From the NCBI GenBank assembly GCA_964564245.1, contig CAZMAK010000001.1, forward strand, positions 48,989 to 112,988: a stretch of 64,000 nt of DNA. Direction: 5' to 3'. This stretch comes from an uncultured Ectothiorhodospiraceae bacterium (GTDB lineage Bacteria; Pseudomonadota; Gammaproteobacteria; UBA9214). The notes beneath the pieces were generated by a model. It was not told the DNA's origin, made no database searches, and saw nothing but the letters and a program-made list of their open reading frames with translations. Shown in pieces: positions 14,489-36,827 of the stretch. The position numbers were made by a program, and so were the translations under genes. Numbering within the stretch: position 1 is the first letter of the stretch; every line of letters starts with the position of its first letter.

Positions 14489-15419
14489 GGGTCGGACCTG
14501 TTTATCAGACTGATCCTCAAGCAATAAGTGTTCATATTTGGCTAAGGTATGGACCCTAAGCGTCGTTTCCAGGCTAAAAACGCAGTTTCAAGGAGGACAT
14601 GGATGCCTCGTGCACATCGCTATTTCCTGCCAGGCCATATCTGGCACATCACGCATCGCTGCCACAAGCGGCAGTTCCTGCTCAAGTTTGCGAAGGACCG
14701 CAGGGCCTGGGTGTACTGGCTCTATCAGGCACGCAAACGCTTTAACCTGTGCGTACTGAACTATGTTGTGACATCAAACCATATCCATTTGCTGGTTAAG
14801 GACACGGGGCGCGGAGAGATCTCGCGCAGTATGCAGTTGATTGCCGGGCGTGTGGCGCAACAGTTCAACCGACGCAAGGCACGCAAAGGCGCCTACTGGG
14901 AGGATCGCTATCATGCAACCGCCGTGCAGTCGGACGGACATCTGGCAAGGTGCATGGTCTACATCGACCTGAACATGGTCCGGGCCGGGGTGGTGGCACA
15001 TCCAGCGGACTGGGTGCATGCGGGTTACAACGAAATCCAGTCGTTGCCGAAGCGCTACCGCTGCGTCGATGTGGCAGCACTTTCCGCATTACTGGATTTT
15101 ACCGATGCGGATAGCTTGCGCGACGGACTGCGCACGCGAGTGGAACTGGCGCTTGCGAAGGGTAATCTGGAGCGCGACCCAGCGTGGACCATGAGTATCG
15201 CCGTGGGACAGCGCGACTACCTGGACGCGATCGGGCTCGAACTGAAGCTCAGTCATCCGGGGCGGAGGATTGAGGGAGACGCAGATCTATTATGCTTGCG
15301 GGAGGAACCGAGCAGTTATTCGAGCTAAAAAGTGCCAGAAAAGTATGGTCCAAGCTGAGAAATCAGTCGCTCAACCGCATTATGTGATTACTTATCAGGA
15401 TATTGGGAAGGTCCGACCC
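14489..15419 (+). mobile_element. REPtron-like unit: RAYT gene bracketed by inverted REP-like repeats
   Basis: Perfect 11-bp inverted repeat GGGTCGGACCT (14489-14499) / AGGTCCGACCC (15409-15419) flanks the transposase gene. The same core CAGGTCCGAC recurs in the 21-bp repeats at 23726-23747, 23875-23895 and 36807-36827. Confidence 0.5.
14603..15328 (+). CDS. REP-associated tyrosine transposase (RAYT; IS200/IS605-like Y1 HUH transposase)
   Basis: HUH motif NHIHLLV and catalytic-Tyr region GAYWEDRYH. AAGGAGG RBS 6 nt before ATG 14603. The track ORF starts further upstream at 14549. Confidence 0.8.
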   Translation: MPRAHRYFLPGHIWHITHRCHKRQFLLKFAKDRRAWVYWLYQARKRFNLCVLNYVVTSNHIHLLVKDTGRGEISRSMQLIAGRVAQQFNRRKARKGAYWEDRYHATAVQSDGHLARCMVYIDLNMVRAGVVAHPADWVHAGYNEIQSLPKRYRCVDVAALSALLDFTDADSLRDGLRTRVELALAKGNLERDPAWTMSIAVGQRDYLDAIGLELKLSHPGRRIEGDADLLCLREEPSSYSS

Positions 15420-21882: not shown

Positions 21883-22608
21883 ATGCAATTATTACGCACT
21901 GGCTGCGTGGTTCTCGCCTGTCTCGCAGGAGTTTCTCTAGAGGCCAACGCCCTCACCATTGACTTCGGCACGGTTAAGGATGCCAACGTGCAAAGCGACA
22001 GTTCCGGTCCGCTCGGGGGTGGCAGCGCAATCCTCGATCCCTTTACAAACAGTAGCTACAGCATCGATTCCTACATCGGATTTGATATCGCTGACTTTCA
22101 GTCGCTCGGAAACCCGGCTGTCGACGTTTCCCTCGATCTGTATGGCTTTGCTGCAAGAACCTCGCTGGTCCTGAATATCTATGGACTGAACGATCTGGTA
22201 TCTCCCGGCTGGTCAGAAAGCACCATCGACTGGACCAATGCACCCGGAATACAGTCAGATTCGATTGATCCTGCCACAACGACCCTGTTGTTTTCGGGGT
22301 CGGTCAGCTATACAGCGAATAACGTCATCAGCTTCAGTGACAGTTCTTTTGCTGATTTCATTAACAGCGACACAGATGGCCTGGTCACCTTCATTCTCAC
22401 GCAGCCAACCGCTACCAGCGAAAACCACGCATTCAGCAGCAAGGAATCCTCTGGCAATCCCGCTATCGGTCTCCCGGGTGACTATGCGCCCACACTGCAC
22501 ATTACAGCAGCGCCCGTCCCCGCCGCTGTCTGGCTGTTCGGTTCCGGCCTGCTGGGGCTGATCGTTGTGGCGCGGCGCCGGCACCGCGCCTCAGTGCACC
22601 GCCTGTGA
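21883..22608 (+). CDS. PEP-CTERM-anchored secreted protein with a carbohydrate-binding-like beta-sandwich domain
   Basis: Signal peptide MQLLRTGCVVLACLAGVSLEA. Domain ending WSESTIDWTNAPG is the same module as in the giant pilin-adhesin. C-terminus PVPAAVWLFGSGLLGLIVVARRRHR matches the PEP-CTERM sorting-signal architecture (VPxx, TM, RRR). GGAGG RBS before ATG 21883. Confidence 0.6.
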   Translation: MQLLRTGCVVLACLAGVSLEANALTIDFGTVKDANVQSDSSGPLGGGSAILDPFTNSSYSIDSYIGFDIADFQSLGNPAVDVSLDLYGFAARTSLVLNIYGLNDLVSPGWSESTIDWTNAPGIQSDSIDPATTTLLFSGSVSYTANNVISFSDSSFADFINSDTDGLVTFILTQPTATSENHAFSSKESSGNPAIGLPGDYAPTLHITAAPVPAAVWLFGSGLLGLIVVARRRHRASVHRL

Positions 22609-23715
22609 CAGCTTGAAGATCGGCAGGATCAGCGAACTCACGATCAGACCGACCACGGCACCCATGACGATCAGCATGACCGGTTCCACCATGCGCGAGA
22701 AGGTTGCCAGGTTGCGCGCCAGTTCGCGTTCGTAATAGAGCGCGATCCGCCCCAGCACCAGCGGCAGCTTGCCGGTTTCCTCCCCGGTGGTCACCATCTG
22801 GCTCACCATCGGTGGAATGAAACTCGCGGTCTGGAATGCAGCGGAAAAACCGCCGCCCTCGTTGACCGTTTCCTCCAGCCCGGTCAGGAAGCGGCGGAAC
22901 TCCCGGTTGGCAACCACCTCACGGCAGGCGGACAGGGCGTCCGGCACGCTCACGCCATGTTCCAGCGACAGGCCCAGTACCCGCAGCGACTGGATCAGGT
23001 ATATCCGGGTATAGATGTCGCGCAGGCCGAAGGCCGACAGCTTGAACCGGTCGAGCGCGGCACGACCGGCGTCACTTCGAAGCCACCACACCAGCAGGGC
23101 CACTGCAACCGCCACGCCGGCGCCCAGTTCCGGCCAGTACCGGACAAGGAAATGACTGAACCGCATCAGTACCAGCGTGGTGACCGGCAGCTTGTCGGCA
23201 ATGCTGGCAAACATGACGGCGAACTTCGGGAACACCTCCATCAGCACGAACACCACGACAAACAGCGAGAATGCGATCAGGAAGGCCGGGTAGGACAGGG
23301 CGGAAGTCACGGTACGGCGCAGCTCCATCCGCTTCTCGTCCATGTTTTTCAGCTCCAGCAGCACACTGTCCAGAAAGCCGCCCTGCTCCGCGGCCGCGAC
23401 CAGCGTGACGTAACTGACCGGGAACATGTCCGGGAAGTGGGTCAGTGCCCGGGAAAAGGAATTCCCGCTGGTCACCTGTTCCTGCAGCCGGTTGATGATG
23501 GCCGCCATGGCCGGATTCGCGACCTGTTTGCCCAGCGCGTTCAGCGCGGCATGCAGGGGGGTGCCCGTCTCCAGCAACAGCGACAGCTGCTCGGTAAAGA
23601 AGATACGGTCCTGCACACCGGGCCTGTGTCGCGCAAACAGTCGCGTGCGCGGTTTCGGAGTTGCCAGTGCGGCCTTCCGGGCAGTCTCCCGCAACGCGGT
23701 TATTTCAAGCGCCAT
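22591..23715 (-). CDS. type II/IV secretion platform protein (GspF/PilC/MshG family)
   Basis: Two T2SS-F repeats and three TM segments. Conserved C-terminus GE(E)TGKL...L...YYERE. Confidence 0.85.
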   Translation of the reverse strand: MALEITALRETARKAALATPKPRTRLFARHRPGVQDRIFFTEQLSLLLETGTPLHAALNALGKQVANPAMAAIINRLQEQVTSGNSFSRALTHFPDMFPVSYVTLVAAAEQGGFLDSVLLELKNMDEKRMELRRTVTSALSYPAFLIAFSLFVVVFVLMEVFPKFAVMFASIADKLPVTTLVLMRFSHFLVRYWPELGAGVAVAVALLVWWLRSDAGRAALDRFKLSAFGLRDIYTRIYLIQSLRVLGLSLEHGVSVPDALSACREVVANREFRRFLTGLEETVNEGGGFSAAFQTASFIPPMVSQMVTTGEETGKLPLVLGRIALYYERELARNLATFSRMVEPVMLIVMGAVVGLIVSSLILPIFKLSQAVH

Positions 23716-23725
23716 GCGGGTGACT

Positions 23726-23895
23726 CCTGGGAGCCTGTCGGGCCTGGGCGATCGTAGCGAGCCGTGTGGGAGAACGAGGCCATTTTTCCGATCGTTCGAG
23801 GAGAATAGCCGTCGCTATTTGACGAGGAGGAGCGGAACAATGGACCGCTGTCCCACCGGCGCAGTAGATCAGTCCCAGGTCCGACAGGCTCCTAG
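23726..23895. mobile_element. MITE/REPIN-like element (about 170 bp) with 21-bp terminal inverted repeats
   Basis: CCTGGGAGCCTGTCGGGCCTGG (23726-23747) and its near-perfect inverted copy CCAGGTCCGACAGGCTCCTAG (23875-23895) bound the ATPase-platform intergenic region. 19 of 21 positions match. The left repeat contributes part of the platform gene RBS. The right repeat contains the ATPase stop codon. Confidence 0.55.
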
Positions 23896-25931
23896 ACATT
23901 GATGACACGGGAAACCTCCTCGATCGTGGTTTCACCCGCCCGCACGTGATCCAGGCCATCGACAAACAGATTGCGGAAATCCCGCTCATGTAGATGCCGG
24001 TGCAGCTCGTCGCGCCCCGGACTGGTGGTGATCAGGCGTTGCAACGATTCATCACATTGCAGCACCTCGTGTATACCCATGCGCCCGCGATAGCCGGAAT
24101 CGTAGCATTCGTTACAGCCACGCCCGCGCGCCAGCTGCACCTGCCCGTCCCAGCCGAACCGGCTGATCAGGCCCGGTTCGGCCACATAGCGCGTCTTGCA
24201 GGCCGGGCAGATGACGCGGACCAGCCGTTGCGCAACCACGCCGATCAGTGCGGAGGACAGCAGATACGGTTCCACGTCCATATCGATCATGCGCGTGATT
24301 GCGCCGATCGCATGATTGGTGTGCAGGGTCGACAGCACCAGATGGCCGGTCAGGGCCGCCTGCACGGCGATTTCCGCCGTCTCGCGGTCACGGATCTCAC
24401 CCACCATCACGATATCCGGATCCTGGCGCAGCGTGTGGCGCAGGATGGTGGAGAAGGTCAGGCCGATGTGCTCATGCACCTCGTTCTGGTTGACCACCTC
24501 GATCTGGTATTCGACCGGATCCTCGATGGTCACGATGTTCTTTTCCATGCTGTTGAGGTAGTTCAGCGCGGCATACAGCGAGGTGGTCTTGCCGCTGCCG
24601 GTCGGTCCGGTGACCAGGATCAGTCCGTGGCTGCTGTCGAGCAGGGACTTGAACAGGGTCAGGTTGCCCGCGCTCATGCCGAGCTTGTTGACGTCCAGCA
24701 GCGAACGGTTCTTGTCCAGCACGCGCAATACCACCTTCTCCCCGAACAGGCCCGGCAGTGAACTGAAGCGCAGGTCCACCGCGCGACCCTGGGTACGTAC
24801 CTGGATACGGCCGTCCTGCGGCATGCGACGCTCGGCGATATCCAGGTTGGCCATCACCTTGAGACGGGAGACAATGGCCGGGTGGTATTCGGCACTGAGC
24901 GTGGTGACCTCGTACAACACCCCGTCGATACGGAAGCGTACGCGGGTCCGGTTTCGTGACGGCTCGATGTGAATGTCGCTGGCGCCGTCACGGATCGCGC
25001 GCTGGACCAGCGAATTGACCAGGTTGACGATCGGACTGCCTTCCGCCATCTCGTCGATCGCGGCGTAGTCGTCGCGGGCAATATTCTCGACCACGGTAAA
25101 GTCGGCATCGACATCGCCGATCAGTTCAATGGTGTCCACGTTACCTGCGTAGGCATCGTTGAGGGCGTTCAGGATGTCCTCGCGCCGTGCAATCACCGGC
25201 TGCACGCGGCAACCGGAAAGCTTCTCGACCTCGGCGAACGCGGGCATGGCCTGCGGGTCCGAGGTGGCCAGGAACAGCACATCATGTATCTTCTGCAGCG
25301 GCAGCATCTGCAGGCGTTTCGCAACCCGCATGTCGATGATTCCCGTCACGGCAGGATCGTAGATACCGGCACGCAGGCGCACGCAGGGAATCGACAGCTG
25401 TTCACCCAGCGCGGTCAGCACGTCCTGATCGGACACCCACCCCTTGTCGATGATGATCTGCCCCATGCGCCGCGACGTCCGCTTCTGCAGCTCGATCGCC
25501 TCGGCAATACGTTCCTCCGTGATCAGACCCCGTTCCAGCAGGATATCTCCCAGGCGTTGTGTCCCGCCGCTGCGCGTAGTGCGTTGCACGGGGTCCACGT
25601 CCACCATGGGGACATAACTGGAAAACGAGGTAAGCGTCAGGATATCCAGCACGATCGTGTTGGCTCGCGCCAGCTTCAGCCAGCCGCCCTGCCGTACCGC
25701 CTGTTCCTGGATGTCTACCAGCGCCTCCAGCGCCGCACTGTTGAGCAGCTTGACCGATCCCAGGTCCACTACGAGCTGTGCATCGCCCGGTCGCATGCTT
25801 TCGTTCGCGGCGGCCGTCAGCGCCCGGATATCCTCATCACTGAGCAACGAGGTACGTGGCACCAGCTGGGTCATCACGCCCACGCGGGTACGCAACACCT
25901 CGCTCGTCAGATATTCGGGTGAAACACTCAT
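23892..25931 (-). CDS. pilus extension ATPase of the GspE/MshE family with N-terminal STAS-like domain and MshEN-type c-di-GMP-binding motifs
   Basis: Walker A GPTGSGKT, Asp box, His box, CPACK Zn motif. MshEN motif RLGDILLERGLITEERIAEAIELQKRT at about residue 118. The preceding 110 aa (LVVDLGSVKLLNSAALEALVDIQEQAVRQGGWLKLARANTIVLDILTLTSF) align with SpoIIAA-type STAS domains. 679 aa, versus about 575 aa for canonical MshE. Confidence 0.9.
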   Translation of the reverse strand: MSVSPEYLTSEVLRTRVGVMTQLVPRTSLLSDEDIRALTAAANESMRPGDAQLVVDLGSVKLLNSAALEALVDIQEQAVRQGGWLKLARANTIVLDILTLTSFSSYVPMVDVDPVQRTTRSGGTQRLGDILLERGLITEERIAEAIELQKRTSRRMGQIIIDKGWVSDQDVLTALGEQLSIPCVRLRAGIYDPAVTGIIDMRVAKRLQMLPLQKIHDVLFLATSDPQAMPAFAEVEKLSGCRVQPVIARREDILNALNDAYAGNVDTIELIGDVDADFTVVENIARDDYAAIDEMAEGSPIVNLVNSLVQRAIRDGASDIHIEPSRNRTRVRFRIDGVLYEVTTLSAEYHPAIVSRLKVMANLDIAERRMPQDGRIQVRTQGRAVDLRFSSLPGLFGEKVVLRVLDKNRSLLDVNKLGMSAGNLTLFKSLLDSSHGLILVTGPTGSGKTTSLYAALNYLNSMEKNIVTIEDPVEYQIEVVNQNEVHEHIGLTFSTILRHTLRQDPDIVMVGEIRDRETAEIAVQAALTGHLVLSTLHTNHAIGAITRMIDMDVEPYLLSSALIGVVAQRLVRVICPACKTRYVAEPGLISRFGWDGQVQLARGRGCNECYDSGYRGRMGIHEVLQCDESLQRLITTSPGRDELHRHLHERDFRNLFVDGLDHVRAGETTIEEVSRVINV

Positions 25932-28135
25932 TGGATGCAGCGCCGGGACCCGCCGGTATGCAGGGACTCCAGGTAGCCCGTCAGGGGTGACGGCCTGTCG
26001 ATGCCGTATCCCTGCAGATAGTCCACGCCCATCCGCGTCAACTGTTCGGCAATGGCGTCGTTTTCCACGTATTCGGCAATCGTCTTCAGTCCCATGACGT
26101 GACCGATCTGTATGACGGAAGCCACCATGGCGGAAGACACCGGGTCCTCGAGTATCTGCCGCACGAAGGAGCCGTCGATCTTCACGTACTCGACCGGCAG
26201 GCCCTTCAGGTAACTGAACGAACTCAATCCGGTCCCGAAGTCATCCAGCGAGAAACGGCAACCGATCGCCTTCAGTTGCCCGATGATCGCTAGCGCCGCC
26301 TCCCGGTTACCGATCGCGGCCGTTTCGGTCACCTCGAAACAGAGACAGTCCGGTGCAATGCGGTACTCACCGATCTTTCCGGTAATGTAGGTCGCAAGCT
26401 CCAGGTCGGCAAGCGACTGTCCGGACAGGTTGATGGAGACGATGCCCTGCCCCGCACTCCCGGCGATGCCGGCCTCGGCCAGGCTGGCCAGGGTTGCATT
26501 GATCACCCAGCGATCGATGGACGGCATCAGGTTGAACTGTTCCGCCGCCGGCAGGAAGCTGTCCGGGCTGAGCAGGTGACCGTCCTCGTCGACCAGCCGC
26601 ATCAGTACCTCGAAATGGAACTGTTCGCCGTTCGCGGAAACCGGCCGGATGGTCTGGCAATGCAGCATGACCCGGTCTTCGCGCAATGCCCTCTGGATAC
26701 TCGCCACGCACTGGATGTTACTACGCCGCGTCGCCAGCCCGGTGTCATCCTCACCAAATGCCTGGATCTGGCCGGTGCCCAGCTCCTTGGCGGCCGCGCG
26801 CGCGAGCTCGGCTGATTCCATCGCCTCACCGGCACTGGCGGTCTGCGGCCCGACCATGACCACACCGGTAGCCATCTGCAGGTCGATGGAGGCGGAATCC
26901 AGGTGTATCTGGTCACGCTGCACATGATCGCGCAACATGTACGCGACCCTCACACCCTGATCGATCCCGGTCCTTTCCAGCAGTACGCCATAGCGGCCCT
27001 CGCCGAGATACCCGATGGTATCCGTACCGCGCAGCTTGTTGCGCAACTTCTCGCCGACGATACGTATGACGGTGTCACCGGCCTTGCGGCCGTAGGTCTC
27101 GTTGATGACCTGCAGGCGCCCGATGTCGATATTCAGCAGACAGTGGTGCAGACCTTCACCGCTGGCATCCTGTATGGCCCGCTGCAGCACGGTCTCGAAG
27201 GCATGCGGGTTCATCAGTCCGGTCAGCGTATCGTAGTTGGCCTGCGTGATCTTGGCGATTTTCCGGCCCATGACCTTGAGCAGGTTGCGGTCGCTGTTGA
27301 AAAAGTCCGGCCGGTAGATGTGGTTAAGACAGACCAGCACCCCCTCGATCTCGCCACGGGCGTTGACTACCGGGCAAGACAGCAGCTTGTAGGGGATATC
27401 GAGGGAGAGTTCCTCACGTCGCTGGTCATAGAGTTCATTGATCAGCAGGCAATCGGGCTGTGTAATGGCATACGGCAGGAACTTCCCGGCCAGCACCTCG
27501 AACAGCTCATCGGGATGCAGTACCGGATCGCGCGGGCCGGCGGCATACAGGGTGCGCCTCCGGTCCGGGTAAAACAGCGCCACCATGTCGACATCGAGAT
27601 ACTCGACGTAGCTTTCGACCAGCGATGTCAGTGCGACATTTTCCTGCTCGATGCTGGCGCTCTCTTCCACATCGTAGACCAGGTTCAGCTCGTCGTAGCG
27701 ACCGGCCAGTTCCCTGGCCATGGTATCCAGTTCGACAGTCAGGCGGTATTCCTTTTCCACACACCCCACGATACAGGCGAAGGCCGCGTTCACGGCGGCA
27801 TCCAGCCCGTCGGCGGGCAGCTCGTCACCGGGATCACCCGTGCCGATGAGCCATCCTGCGCACCTGTCGGCCGGTGTGCGGATTTCCATCAGGCAGGTGA
27901 TGATCCCGTCGTTGCGTTCCACCACAAGCCGCCGGCCGGTAGCCGGCACTGCATGGATTCCCGCCGCATCGACGTTGAAGCGTGTCCGGGAAATCTGCGC
28001 AGCGTTGTCCGTATCACCGTCCAGTACCAGCCCGGCACAGTCACACACGTAGAGATCCAGGCCACGCGGCAGTAGCTGGCGCAGCAGCGCGAAATAGTTC
28101 CCTAAACCGATCTGGCTCAACGGACCTGCCGGCAT
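25928..28135 (-). CDS. c-di-GMP phosphodiesterase: sensor (GAF/PAS-like), degenerate GGDEF, EAL
   Basis: EAL-domain motifs EVLMRL, DDFGTG, KIDGSF. The GGDEF position reads GEGRYGV, which is degenerate. ATGA-type overlap with the ATPase start (25928/25931). Confidence 0.85.
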   Translation of the reverse strand: MPAGPLSQIGLGNYFALLRQLLPRGLDLYVCDCAGLVLDGDTDNAAQISRTRFNVDAAGIHAVPATGRRLVVERNDGIITCLMEIRTPADRCAGWLIGTGDPGDELPADGLDAAVNAAFACIVGCVEKEYRLTVELDTMARELAGRYDELNLVYDVEESASIEQENVALTSLVESYVEYLDVDMVALFYPDRRRTLYAAGPRDPVLHPDELFEVLAGKFLPYAITQPDCLLINELYDQRREELSLDIPYKLLSCPVVNARGEIEGVLVCLNHIYRPDFFNSDRNLLKVMGRKIAKITQANYDTLTGLMNPHAFETVLQRAIQDASGEGLHHCLLNIDIGRLQVINETYGRKAGDTVIRIVGEKLRNKLRGTDTIGYLGEGRYGVLLERTGIDQGVRVAYMLRDHVQRDQIHLDSASIDLQMATGVVMVGPQTASAGEAMESAELARAAAKELGTGQIQAFGEDDTGLATRRSNIQCVASIQRALREDRVMLHCQTIRPVSANGEQFHFEVLMRLVDEDGHLLSPDSFLPAAEQFNLMPSIDRWVINATLASLAEAGIAGSAGQGIVSINLSGQSLADLELATYITGKIGEYRIAPDCLCFEVTETAAIGNREAALAIIGQLKAIGCRFSLDDFGTGLSSFSYLKGLPVEYVKIDGSFVRQILEDPVSSAMVASVIQIGHVMGLKTIAEYVENDAIAEQLTRMGVDYLQGYGIDRPSPLTGYLESLHTGGSRRCIQ

Positions 28136-31527: not shown

Positions 31528-32072
31528 GATTCACCTACCGTATTTTCCGGGTTTCGATCACACCACACTGCCTTCGCAACTTCCTTGCGCATCATCAACT
31601 GCATTGAGGCCGGCCACGTCGCCTCATCCACCCGCTCGAAGCCCGGGAACGGGTCCGGTCTGCGCCTCACCCGCCACCCTGCCAGGCAATCCATCCGGCG
31701 AGCAGACAGTGGCCATGGCCACAACATGATAAATATATAAGCAAATACTAAATTAGACAAGCGGGGATCATCACCAACCGCCTGTCCCCGGCTCCTGGAT
31801 TTGTCCAAGCATTAACATCGAGTTAGCAGACATTCCGCAGGACGGATCGTGAAACATCGTCCAAGTCGGGACCAACGCAGCGACGGTATTCCGGCAGGAT
31901 GGGGTAATATTATTTATATATCATATAGTTATGTAAGCTCCCCCGACCGGCTGAAAAAATATTTTTTTGATAACGCCATATACCAACATTACCCGATTCC
32001 GATATTCCAGCATTTTCAGACCACTACATCACTCCCCTCGGACAGTGCCAAATTCGCGTCAATCTATTGTGG

Positions 32073-36705: not shown

Positions 36706-36806
36706 GCCGGGACAGACCACCCGGCGCTACAACCATGGACAGTACCGGCAGGACGCTACGGGAGATGCGGCCGTTTCTGCCAGCCACACCCCGCCGGACA
36801 TCCAGG

Positions 36807-36827
36807 CCAGGTCCGACAGGCTCCTAG
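36807..36827. repeat. solo copy of the 21-bp REP-like repeat CCAGGTCCGACAGGCTCCTAG
   Basis: Exact 21-mer identity with 23875-23895. Again overlaps the TAG stop (CTA at 36824-36826) of a minus-strand gene. Upstream flank shows partial similarity to the interior of the 23.7-kb element. Confidence 0.7.

Follow-up and report, generated by a model that had tools for sequence, protein, structure and literature searches.

Gene context and repeat architecture of the junction

Genes encoding a T2SSE/MshE-like ATPase and a T2SSF/PilC-like platform protein follow one another on the minus strand of the window, the whole 64-kb stretch of DNA that was analysed, and are separated by a gap of 176 nt. STAS and c-di-GMP-binding MshEN domains are located at the N-terminus of the ATPase, and a GAF-GGDEF-EAL gene precedes it, with a stop codon that overlaps the ATPase start; the region 23892-28135 looks, judging from its domains, like an MSHA-like, putatively c-di-GMP-controlled pilus system. 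The whole gap is bounded by an inverted pair of a 21-mer, CCAGGTCCGACAGGCTCCTAG, which a scan of the window locates as exact copies at 23875-23895 and 36807-36827 and as an inverted copy with two mismatches at 23727-23747, where no match is expected by chance (100 shuffles). The preliminary description had reported this near-perfect pair, its position bounding the entire ATPase-platform gap and the exact third copy at 36807-36827; all three observations were reproduced, the only change being that the left copy starts at 23727 and not at 23726. The features of the locus are as follows.

22591-23715, minus strand: T2SSF/PilC-like platform protein (Pfam and NCBIfam)
23713-23728, minus strand: platform-gene RBS AGGAG (23728-23724) and start codon ATG (23715-23713), native sequence
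23728-23729, plus strand: second target-site copy, degenerate, TG on the plus strand and CA on the minus strand
23730-23892, minus strand (the family's forward orientation being the sense strand of the pilus mRNA): body of the miniature inverted-repeat element (MITE), 163 bp, from the family profile and end-to-end alignment
23730-23748, plus strand: terminal inverted repeat GGAGCCTGTCGGGCCTGGG, 18 of 19 positions matching the reverse complement of 23874-23892
23874-23892, plus strand: terminal inverted repeat CCCAGGTCCGACAGGCTCC, with an 18-nt core, GGAGCCTGTCGGACCTGG, near-invariant in 23 family copies
23893-23894, plus strand: TA target-site copy, forming with element base 23892 the ATPase stop codon TAG (23892-23894, minus strand)
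23892-25931, minus strand: T2SSE/MshE-like ATPase with STAS, MshEN and T2SSE domains (Pfam and NCBIfam)
36807-36826, plus strand: solo terminal repeat CCAGGTCCGACAGGCTCC and TA, within the exact 21-mer, the element interior being absent

The terminal inverted repeats of the window element are 19 bp long with a single mismatch, and those of the family read GGAGCCTGTCGGRCCTGG(G) over 18-19 bp, in a MITE without coding capacity. The window element can be aligned end to end with 22 other copies and scores 138.6 bits against the family profile on the minus strand versus 40.6 bits on the plus strand. Within the 64-kb window the profile finds 23730-23892 and an end at 36804-36824, with no others. At 36807 no likeness extends past 21 nt, no hairpin is present and the profile match is restricted to the terminal repeat, whose TA falls in the TAG stop codon (36824-36826, minus strand) of a 92-aa ORF. 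Of a further insertion, likewise at a C-TAG stop, the 36807 site retains one terminal repeat only. As a separate observation, an AT-rich 32-nt inverted pair, TTGCTTATTTAAGCGTTTGCTTATATATTTAT, 81% complementary, occupies intergenic positions 2765-2796 and 31729-31760 of this window of 63% GC.

Insertion into the ATPase stop codon

Orthologous junctions were compared on contigs retrieved via homologues of the platform protein. In four of these loci (L055, L056, L057 and L100) the junction is empty and consists of the ATPase stop TAG, 11 nt and the platform ATG, reading ...gccTAGgacccgccggcATG in L055/L056 (platform 75% identity), ...atcTAGgaggcgggcgtATG in L057 (70% identity; empty site TAGGAGGcgggcgtATG) and ...gtaTAGgggaatgtttcATG in L100 (80% identity). 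The window junction reads gtcTA/GGAGCC...(163 bp)...GGCTCC/CAggagtcacccgcATG, slashes marking the element boundaries, and 3' of the element CAG, 11 nt and ATG are kept, such that the spacing (T/C)AG + 11 nt + ATG is the same in the window, L053, L055, L057 and L100. The ATPase C-terminus is ...VINV in the window, and orthologues end in ...VIN(V/I/A) at the same TAG. On comparison of sequences the feature is evidently a mobile, MITE-like insertion, as initially proposed, present at unrelated loci and missing from four orthologous junctions.

The 11-nt spacing preserved after the element indicates a duplication of the native TA that lies in C-TA-G. Read most simply, the aligned junctions would mean that the element entered the TA of GTC-TAG-G, that this TA was duplicated and that T later changed to C in the downstream copy. 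The first base of the element is G, which regenerates the stop codon TAG. On this view both the TA of the stop codon and the RBS bases GGAG would be native, the element adding just its first G in place of the native one; the A of the degenerate target copy at 23728-23729 is the first base of the AGGAG. The native RBS and its 11-nt spacer were displaced 165 nt downstream. It had been suggested that the repeat provides the upstream TAG stop, that its left copy supplies part of the AGGAG RBS and that insertion reshaped the stop codon and translation signals. The CTAG end does overlap the TAG stop of a minus-strand ORF in both plus-strand copies; the RBS belongs to the native flank, outside the element, and the proposed reshaping was overstated, the stop TA and the GGAG of the RBS both being native.

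The same junction is occupied differently in two relatives. L053 (359-506; platform identity 88%) has another, distinct element there, about 143 bp long and with ends GCAGGCTGTTGAAAAA, which resemble GSAGSCTGTYGRA of the window element; it lies in the same TA of the ATPase stop and is followed by CAGGAG, 8 nt and ATG. In L054 (3644-4000; platform 70% identical) the junction holds an array of about 350 nt of true REP-like hairpins, with units GTAGGGTGCAC...GTGCACC and GGTGCATGAAATGCACC. Thus, three different repeat families struck one operon junction in related lineages.

Family members and their flanks in other genomes

An exact-pattern scan with the 20-mer TRGGAGCCTGTCGGRCCTGG over genome contigs, with one genome per species, returned 47 loci against a chance estimate of about 4, with one or two exact ends per genome. 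About 25 other genomes carry the same element of about 163 bp, TA-flanked with C outside. The hosts include Burkholderiales (Acidovorax, Rubrivivax, Methylibium, Polaromonas, Ottowia and Pseudorhodoferax), Rhodocyclales, several Gammaproteobacteria, Binatia, Eremiobacterota and a spirochaete MAG; Acidovorax sp. A1169, Ottowia thiooxydans 2709 and the Binatia chromosome OZ243984 are among them. Family likeness begins sharply at (C)TA/GGAGCC. The two-ended elements (n = 27) mostly measure 161-167 bp, the wider family mostly 161-183 bp, and the two-ended elements are bordered by TA at 35 of 54 ends, 16 of the remaining 19 being CA or TG, one transition away. On the side free of the constraint of the search pattern TA occurs at 12 of 24 ends, versus a background TA frequency of 1.9%, and the base outside it is C in 18 of 24; G follows TA in 7 of the 12 elements having TA at both ends. 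In L043 a full element abuts an additional terminal repeat in opposite orientation, with a single TA common to both and no full second element behind the additional repeat.

Matches in Actinomycetota (L006, L008, L023 and L032, in Nocardioides and others) were not counted as family members, having conserved flanks and no partner end; they sit just 5' of a conserved gene and were taken as an unrelated coincidence. Three matches in viral contigs all fall within coding sequence and are therefore attributed to chance. An Rfam scan gave no family at the element region, blastn against PLSDB plasmids and E. coli genomes returned nothing relevant, and a full-text literature search with the terminal-repeat sequence retrieved unrelated primers only. 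No published description of the MITE family was found, nor did searches for a named MITE of Burkholderiales or Polaromonas bring one up, ISfinder and the MITEs of Polaromonas JS666 lying outside the comparison. MITEs are reportedly described in the JS666 genome paper.

A metagenome scan with a subfamily-specific word located copies of the source population at no fewer than five other flanks (L068/L091, L070/L076, L071, L082 and L085), all from the same sample series as the window's strain, together with further copies in other organisms; the source samples are Ga0307417, Ga0307424 and Ga0315556; the L070/L076 copy is an 85-bp deletion derivative. Contigs of the source population terminate inside the element (L002-L005 and L086), as do contig ends L096-L098. 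Positions 1-560 of L001 (identical to L092) join two copies chimerically, linking the platform gene with an unrelated gene's 3' end, and L001 is an assembly chimera through the repeat. The solo end at 36807 is also present in another strain, and contigs on the msrA side break there. The insertion at the pilus junction is kept in all strains having the identical platform protein. The left flanks of L082 and L085, compared with L070/L076, contain extra sequence (..GGCCGGATTCC..) outside the terminal repeat in several source-lineage copies, and the shared GGCCGGATTCC suggests either that one repeat is nested within another or that the unit is a longer composite.

At both ends of several copies from the source lineage, which are about 95% identical to the one in the window, CA...TG stands in place of TA...TA, a pattern not easily explained by neutral decay. 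The replacement of TA by CA/TG (L071, L082, L085, L070/L076 and window 23728-23729) far exceeds expectation from a divergence of about 5%, and these junctions nearly always create CCWGG (CTAGG to CCAGG). By its sequence the pattern recalls the bias that Dcm/Vsr very-short-patch repair might leave, although CCWGG is not over-represented in the 64-kb window.

A hairpin of the whole element

The intergenic region is one long imperfect palindrome with a predicted RNA folding energy of -91.6 kcal/mol (z -7.8; z -7.8 as DNA). Across the family the palindrome is maintained by compensatory changes (28 of 45 pairs), and, as RNA, one and the same strand is the more stable by about 12 kcal/mol in 20 of 23 copies. 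Folding as a REPIN hairpin had been put forward as a check: the whole element folds as a hairpin and each half alone does not, the halves folding no better than shuffled sequence (z 0.14, 1.11, 0.65 and 1.53). The foot of the hairpin is predicted to pair three bases of the platform RBS, and no promoter-like or terminator-like site was found within the element. In the operon transcript the element would form a very stable hairpin partly covering the platform RBS, which could serve as an RNase III or mRNA-stability site, as in Correia elements. A regulatory effect, for instance through RNase III processing, is a conjecture drawn from that analogy.

The RAYT module of the pilus cluster

A Y1-transposase (RAYT-like) gene lies about 8 kb from the element at 14603-15328, with its true start at 14603 and a product of 241 aa; Pfam assigns it to Y1_Tnp, and its NCBIfam REP_Tyr_transpos score is 74.5 bits, under the cutoff of 80. 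The gene is bracketed by a perfect 11-bp inverted repeat (GGGTCGGACCT, 14489-14499; AGGTCCGACCC, 15409-15419). The resulting module (14489-15419) has a GC content of 55.5% versus 63-65% around it and is conserved in synteny inside the pilus cluster, between an HDOD gene and a CBM96 giant-protein gene. RAYT homologues (79-83% identity; 62% in Thioalkalivibrio) are all bracketed by GGGGTCGGACC ... GGTCCGACCCC, outside of which their sequences are unrelated; the inverted repeat therefore belongs to the RAYT module itself. No further GGTCSGACC occurs in the 64-kb window beyond the module. In relatives, the right end of the RAYT module (TTATCAG..TTGGGRAGGTCCGACCCC) recurs in additional solo copies at a distance of 1-2 kb from the RAYT (L058:7700-7760, L060:6660-6715 and L062:2640-2700), which are candidates for the true cognate repeats of RAYTs of this type.

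According to the preliminary description, a 10-bp core of the element's repeat is identical to the RAYT 11-bp repeat. The inverted repeat is real; the 10-mer CAGGTCCGAC has a single match near the RAYT, at 14491-14500, extending 1 nt past the 11-bp repeat, and the right RAYT repeat has 9 nt in common with the element. Among size-matched segments drawn at random from the window, 11.8% have a 10-mer in common with the element. Words of 11-16 nt common to the RAYT flanks and the element are absent, and the 16-mers of the RAYT flanks are unique in the window. As the RAYT repeat is conserved as GGGGTCGGACC, 8 nt are common with the element at the level of the consensus, the overlap with the element end being just GTCGGACC. 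The 8-mer GACTGATC, found in both the left RAYT flank and the element, was rejected as a sign of deeper homology, being part of the RAYT-module sequence TATCAGACTGATSCTCAAGCAA that is conserved in the homologues. The family profile detects nothing at the flanks of the RAYT, nor in the 70 kb surrounding seven loci of RAYT homologues (L058-L064), and a tblastn search found no RAYT in 349 kb of element-bearing loci.

Transposition mechanism and alternative origins

The feature is very probably a 163-bp MITE that inserted in the TA of the ATPase stop codon, duplicated that TA and was moved in trans by a DDE transposase. Such an enzyme would bind the terminal repeats, make 2-bp staggered cuts at TA and move copies in trans. 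We infer mobilisation of this kind because terminal repeats, TA duplication and C-TA-G preference together are documented behaviour of IS630 and ISY100, the bacterial Tc1/mariner elements. IS630 and ISY100 duplicate TA, and IS630 prefers CTAG (PMC2170065, citing Tenzen 1990 and 1991). Models with 3- and 4-bp duplications are excluded by the flank pairs ATAG...CTAT and CTAG...CTAA, and among the 12 elements with intact TA the 4-bp model fails in 7 and the 3-bp model in 5. CTAG is found at just 15 places in the 64-kb window (observed/expected 0.47), six of which serve minus-strand ORFs as stop codons, both insertion sites among them. Since CTAG is rare and often a stop codon, the element seems to 'provide' stop codons; insertions would tend toward stop codons for the same reason.

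Searches of 75 fetched loci, PLSDB plasmids, E. coli genomes and viral contigs yielded no autonomous element with these terminal repeats. The DNA lying inward of 21 solo ends held no autonomous IS, just ordinary genes or elements that had degraded, and a Pfam scan of the 29 window ORFs revealed no DDE transposase. Many accepted MITEs, Correia elements included, have no known parent.

The enzyme would most likely be of the IS630/Tc1-mariner type, with the IS427 group of the IS5 family as a possible source. Derivation of the same MITE from an IS5-family element (IS427/IS5 group), which would also have moved it, is the main alternative and rather unlikely. It draws on the IS5-related MITEPsy1, which likewise targets CTAG (PMC3189936), and on the related element in L053, whose end GCAGGCTGTTGAAAAA looks IS5-like. 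The element in the window has ends starting GG/GAG, which we take to be the form of IS5-family ends. IS5-group elements, however, duplicate 4 nt (CTAG or YTAA), a length that fails here in the 7 of 12 elements given above, and a 2-bp TA duplication with CTAG preference is documented IS630 behaviour. Much less probable is the reading of the preliminary description, in which the feature is a REPIN, with two REP units in inverted orientation that the RAYT (Y1/HUH) at 14603-15328 would move as a single-stranded hairpin. Like the REPINs described in PMC3116915, the element forms one hairpin overall, with ends that are conserved, an interior that varies and changes that compensate one another; one strand consistently folds better than the other, a RAYT-like gene is present 8 kb away and its inverted repeat has GTCGGACC(TG), a core of 8-10 nt, in common with the terminal repeat of the element. 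Against this, the TA duplication and the C-TA-G target are not HUH products. To our knowledge, HUH transposition (IS200/IS605 and RAYT elements) makes no TA target-site duplication. The halves of the element do not fold alone, and its ends are therefore not REPs. A RAYT gene of a REPIN system is flanked by the same REP/REPIN, with abundant common 16-mers (PMC5581495, PMC3116915), whereas the RAYT flanks here have no 11-16-mers in common with the element; the profile is blank at these flanks, RAYT is absent from the 349 kb of element-bearing loci and the RAYT score lies below the NCBIfam cutoff of 80. REPIN-RAYT systems are lineage-specific and vertically inherited (bioRxiv 10.1101/2022.05.22.493013), in contrast to the identical 20-nt end found here across several phyla. 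As these results run counter to the defining features of REPIN/RAYT systems (PMC3116915, PMC5581495), mobilisation by the RAYT is not supported and the proposal is largely refuted: TA is duplicated, the halves are not palindromic and neither an 11-16-mer nor the profile links the two.

Compensatory changes and polarity are also REPIN features and would suit a single-strand intermediate; together with the CA...TG ends of some near-identical copies, they leave a hairpin-based mechanism of that kind a small probability. It is correspondingly improbable that the family moves or persists via a strand-specific single-stranded hairpin and not as a passive passenger of the IS630 type. The strand polarity, a G.T-type asymmetry on one strand and the 28 compensatory pairs fit such a reading, as do the lack of a parent in the searches above and the terminal core GTCGGACC common to the conserved inverted repeat of the single-copy RAYT; if true, a TA-flanked, cross-phylum, REPIN-like element served by an HUH enzyme would be a combination undescribed so far. 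The last alternative, which has only a negligible probability, regards the region as an immobile hairpin, resident in the pilus operon, with a regulatory function as an attenuator, a processing site or an sRNA. A very stable hairpin does lie inside the operon, its structure is conserved by compensatory changes and the insertion is retained in all strains with the identical platform protein; yet it is missing at four orthologous junctions, occurs at unrelated loci in many taxa, has no Rfam match and contains no promoter-like or terminator-like site. A resident hairpin is thus contradicted as the origin, and a secondary regulatory effect of the inserted MITE is possible.

Implications for annotation, assembly and pilus expression

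The element is an ordinary sort of bacterial mini-transposon belonging to a widespread family. For annotation, a compact and easily modelled MITE family is defined by ends GGAGCCTGTCGGRCCTGG, a length of about 163 bp, TA flanks and a C-TA-G target; its members occur in Beta- and Gammaproteobacteria as well as more widely, interrupt metagenome assemblies and give rise to chimeric contigs. In a GC-rich genome an element seeking CTAG gets funnelled onto TAG stop codons. The ATPase-platform junction, one operon junction struck independently by three repeat types in related lineages, therefore offers a natural test case of how inserted hairpins affect the coupled expression of pilus ATPase and platform. 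The tempting link to the RAYT is corrected here as unsupported by the evidence.

Comparison with known systems

Among documented elements, the REPIN/RAYT systems share with the window element a symmetric, hairpin-forming extragenic structure with conserved ends and compensatory changes, and the same genome holds a single-copy RAYT-like gene in conserved synteny. Long-repeat MITEs also show an inverted-doublet hairpin with compensatory changes. The window element differs from REPIN/RAYT systems in its TA duplication, in ends that are not individually palindromic, in RAYT flanks lacking the element's 16-mers, in its low apparent copy number and in its spread across phyla. MITEPsy1 of Pseudomonas syringae, an IS5-related element of 100 bp with 18-nt terminal repeats, targets CTAG like the window family (PMC3189936); it duplicates 4 nt, whereas the window family duplicates only TA, and the terminal repeats of the two are unrelated.

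The Correia elements (CREE/nemis) of Neisseria resemble the window family in being MITEs of 100-200 bp with terminal repeats of about 20-26 bp and TA flanks, often co-transcribed with their neighbours as hairpin RNA, and for neither is a parent transposase known. Correia elements are documented to undergo RNase III processing and to exert regulatory effects (PMC2649163; PMC10969869). The two families are not similar in sequence, and the window copy contains no promoter-like site; in addition, Correia elements exceed 100 copies and belong to one genus, whereas the window family shows one or two exact ends per genome in the 20-mer scan and extends over several phyla.

The window element has terminal repeats starting GGAG, in contrast to the CAG typical of many Tc1/IS630 ends, and an IS630-type transposase with the family's terminal repeats was not found in the loci searched. 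For IS870, the CTAG target is said to complete a stop codon, paralleling the stop-codon junction described here. Short terminal repeats are the sole cis requirement of IS630/Tc1-mariner elements. IS630, ISY100, IS870 and their MITEs, of the Stowaway type, display the same TA duplication and preference for 5'-CTAG-3' as the window family (PMC2170065).
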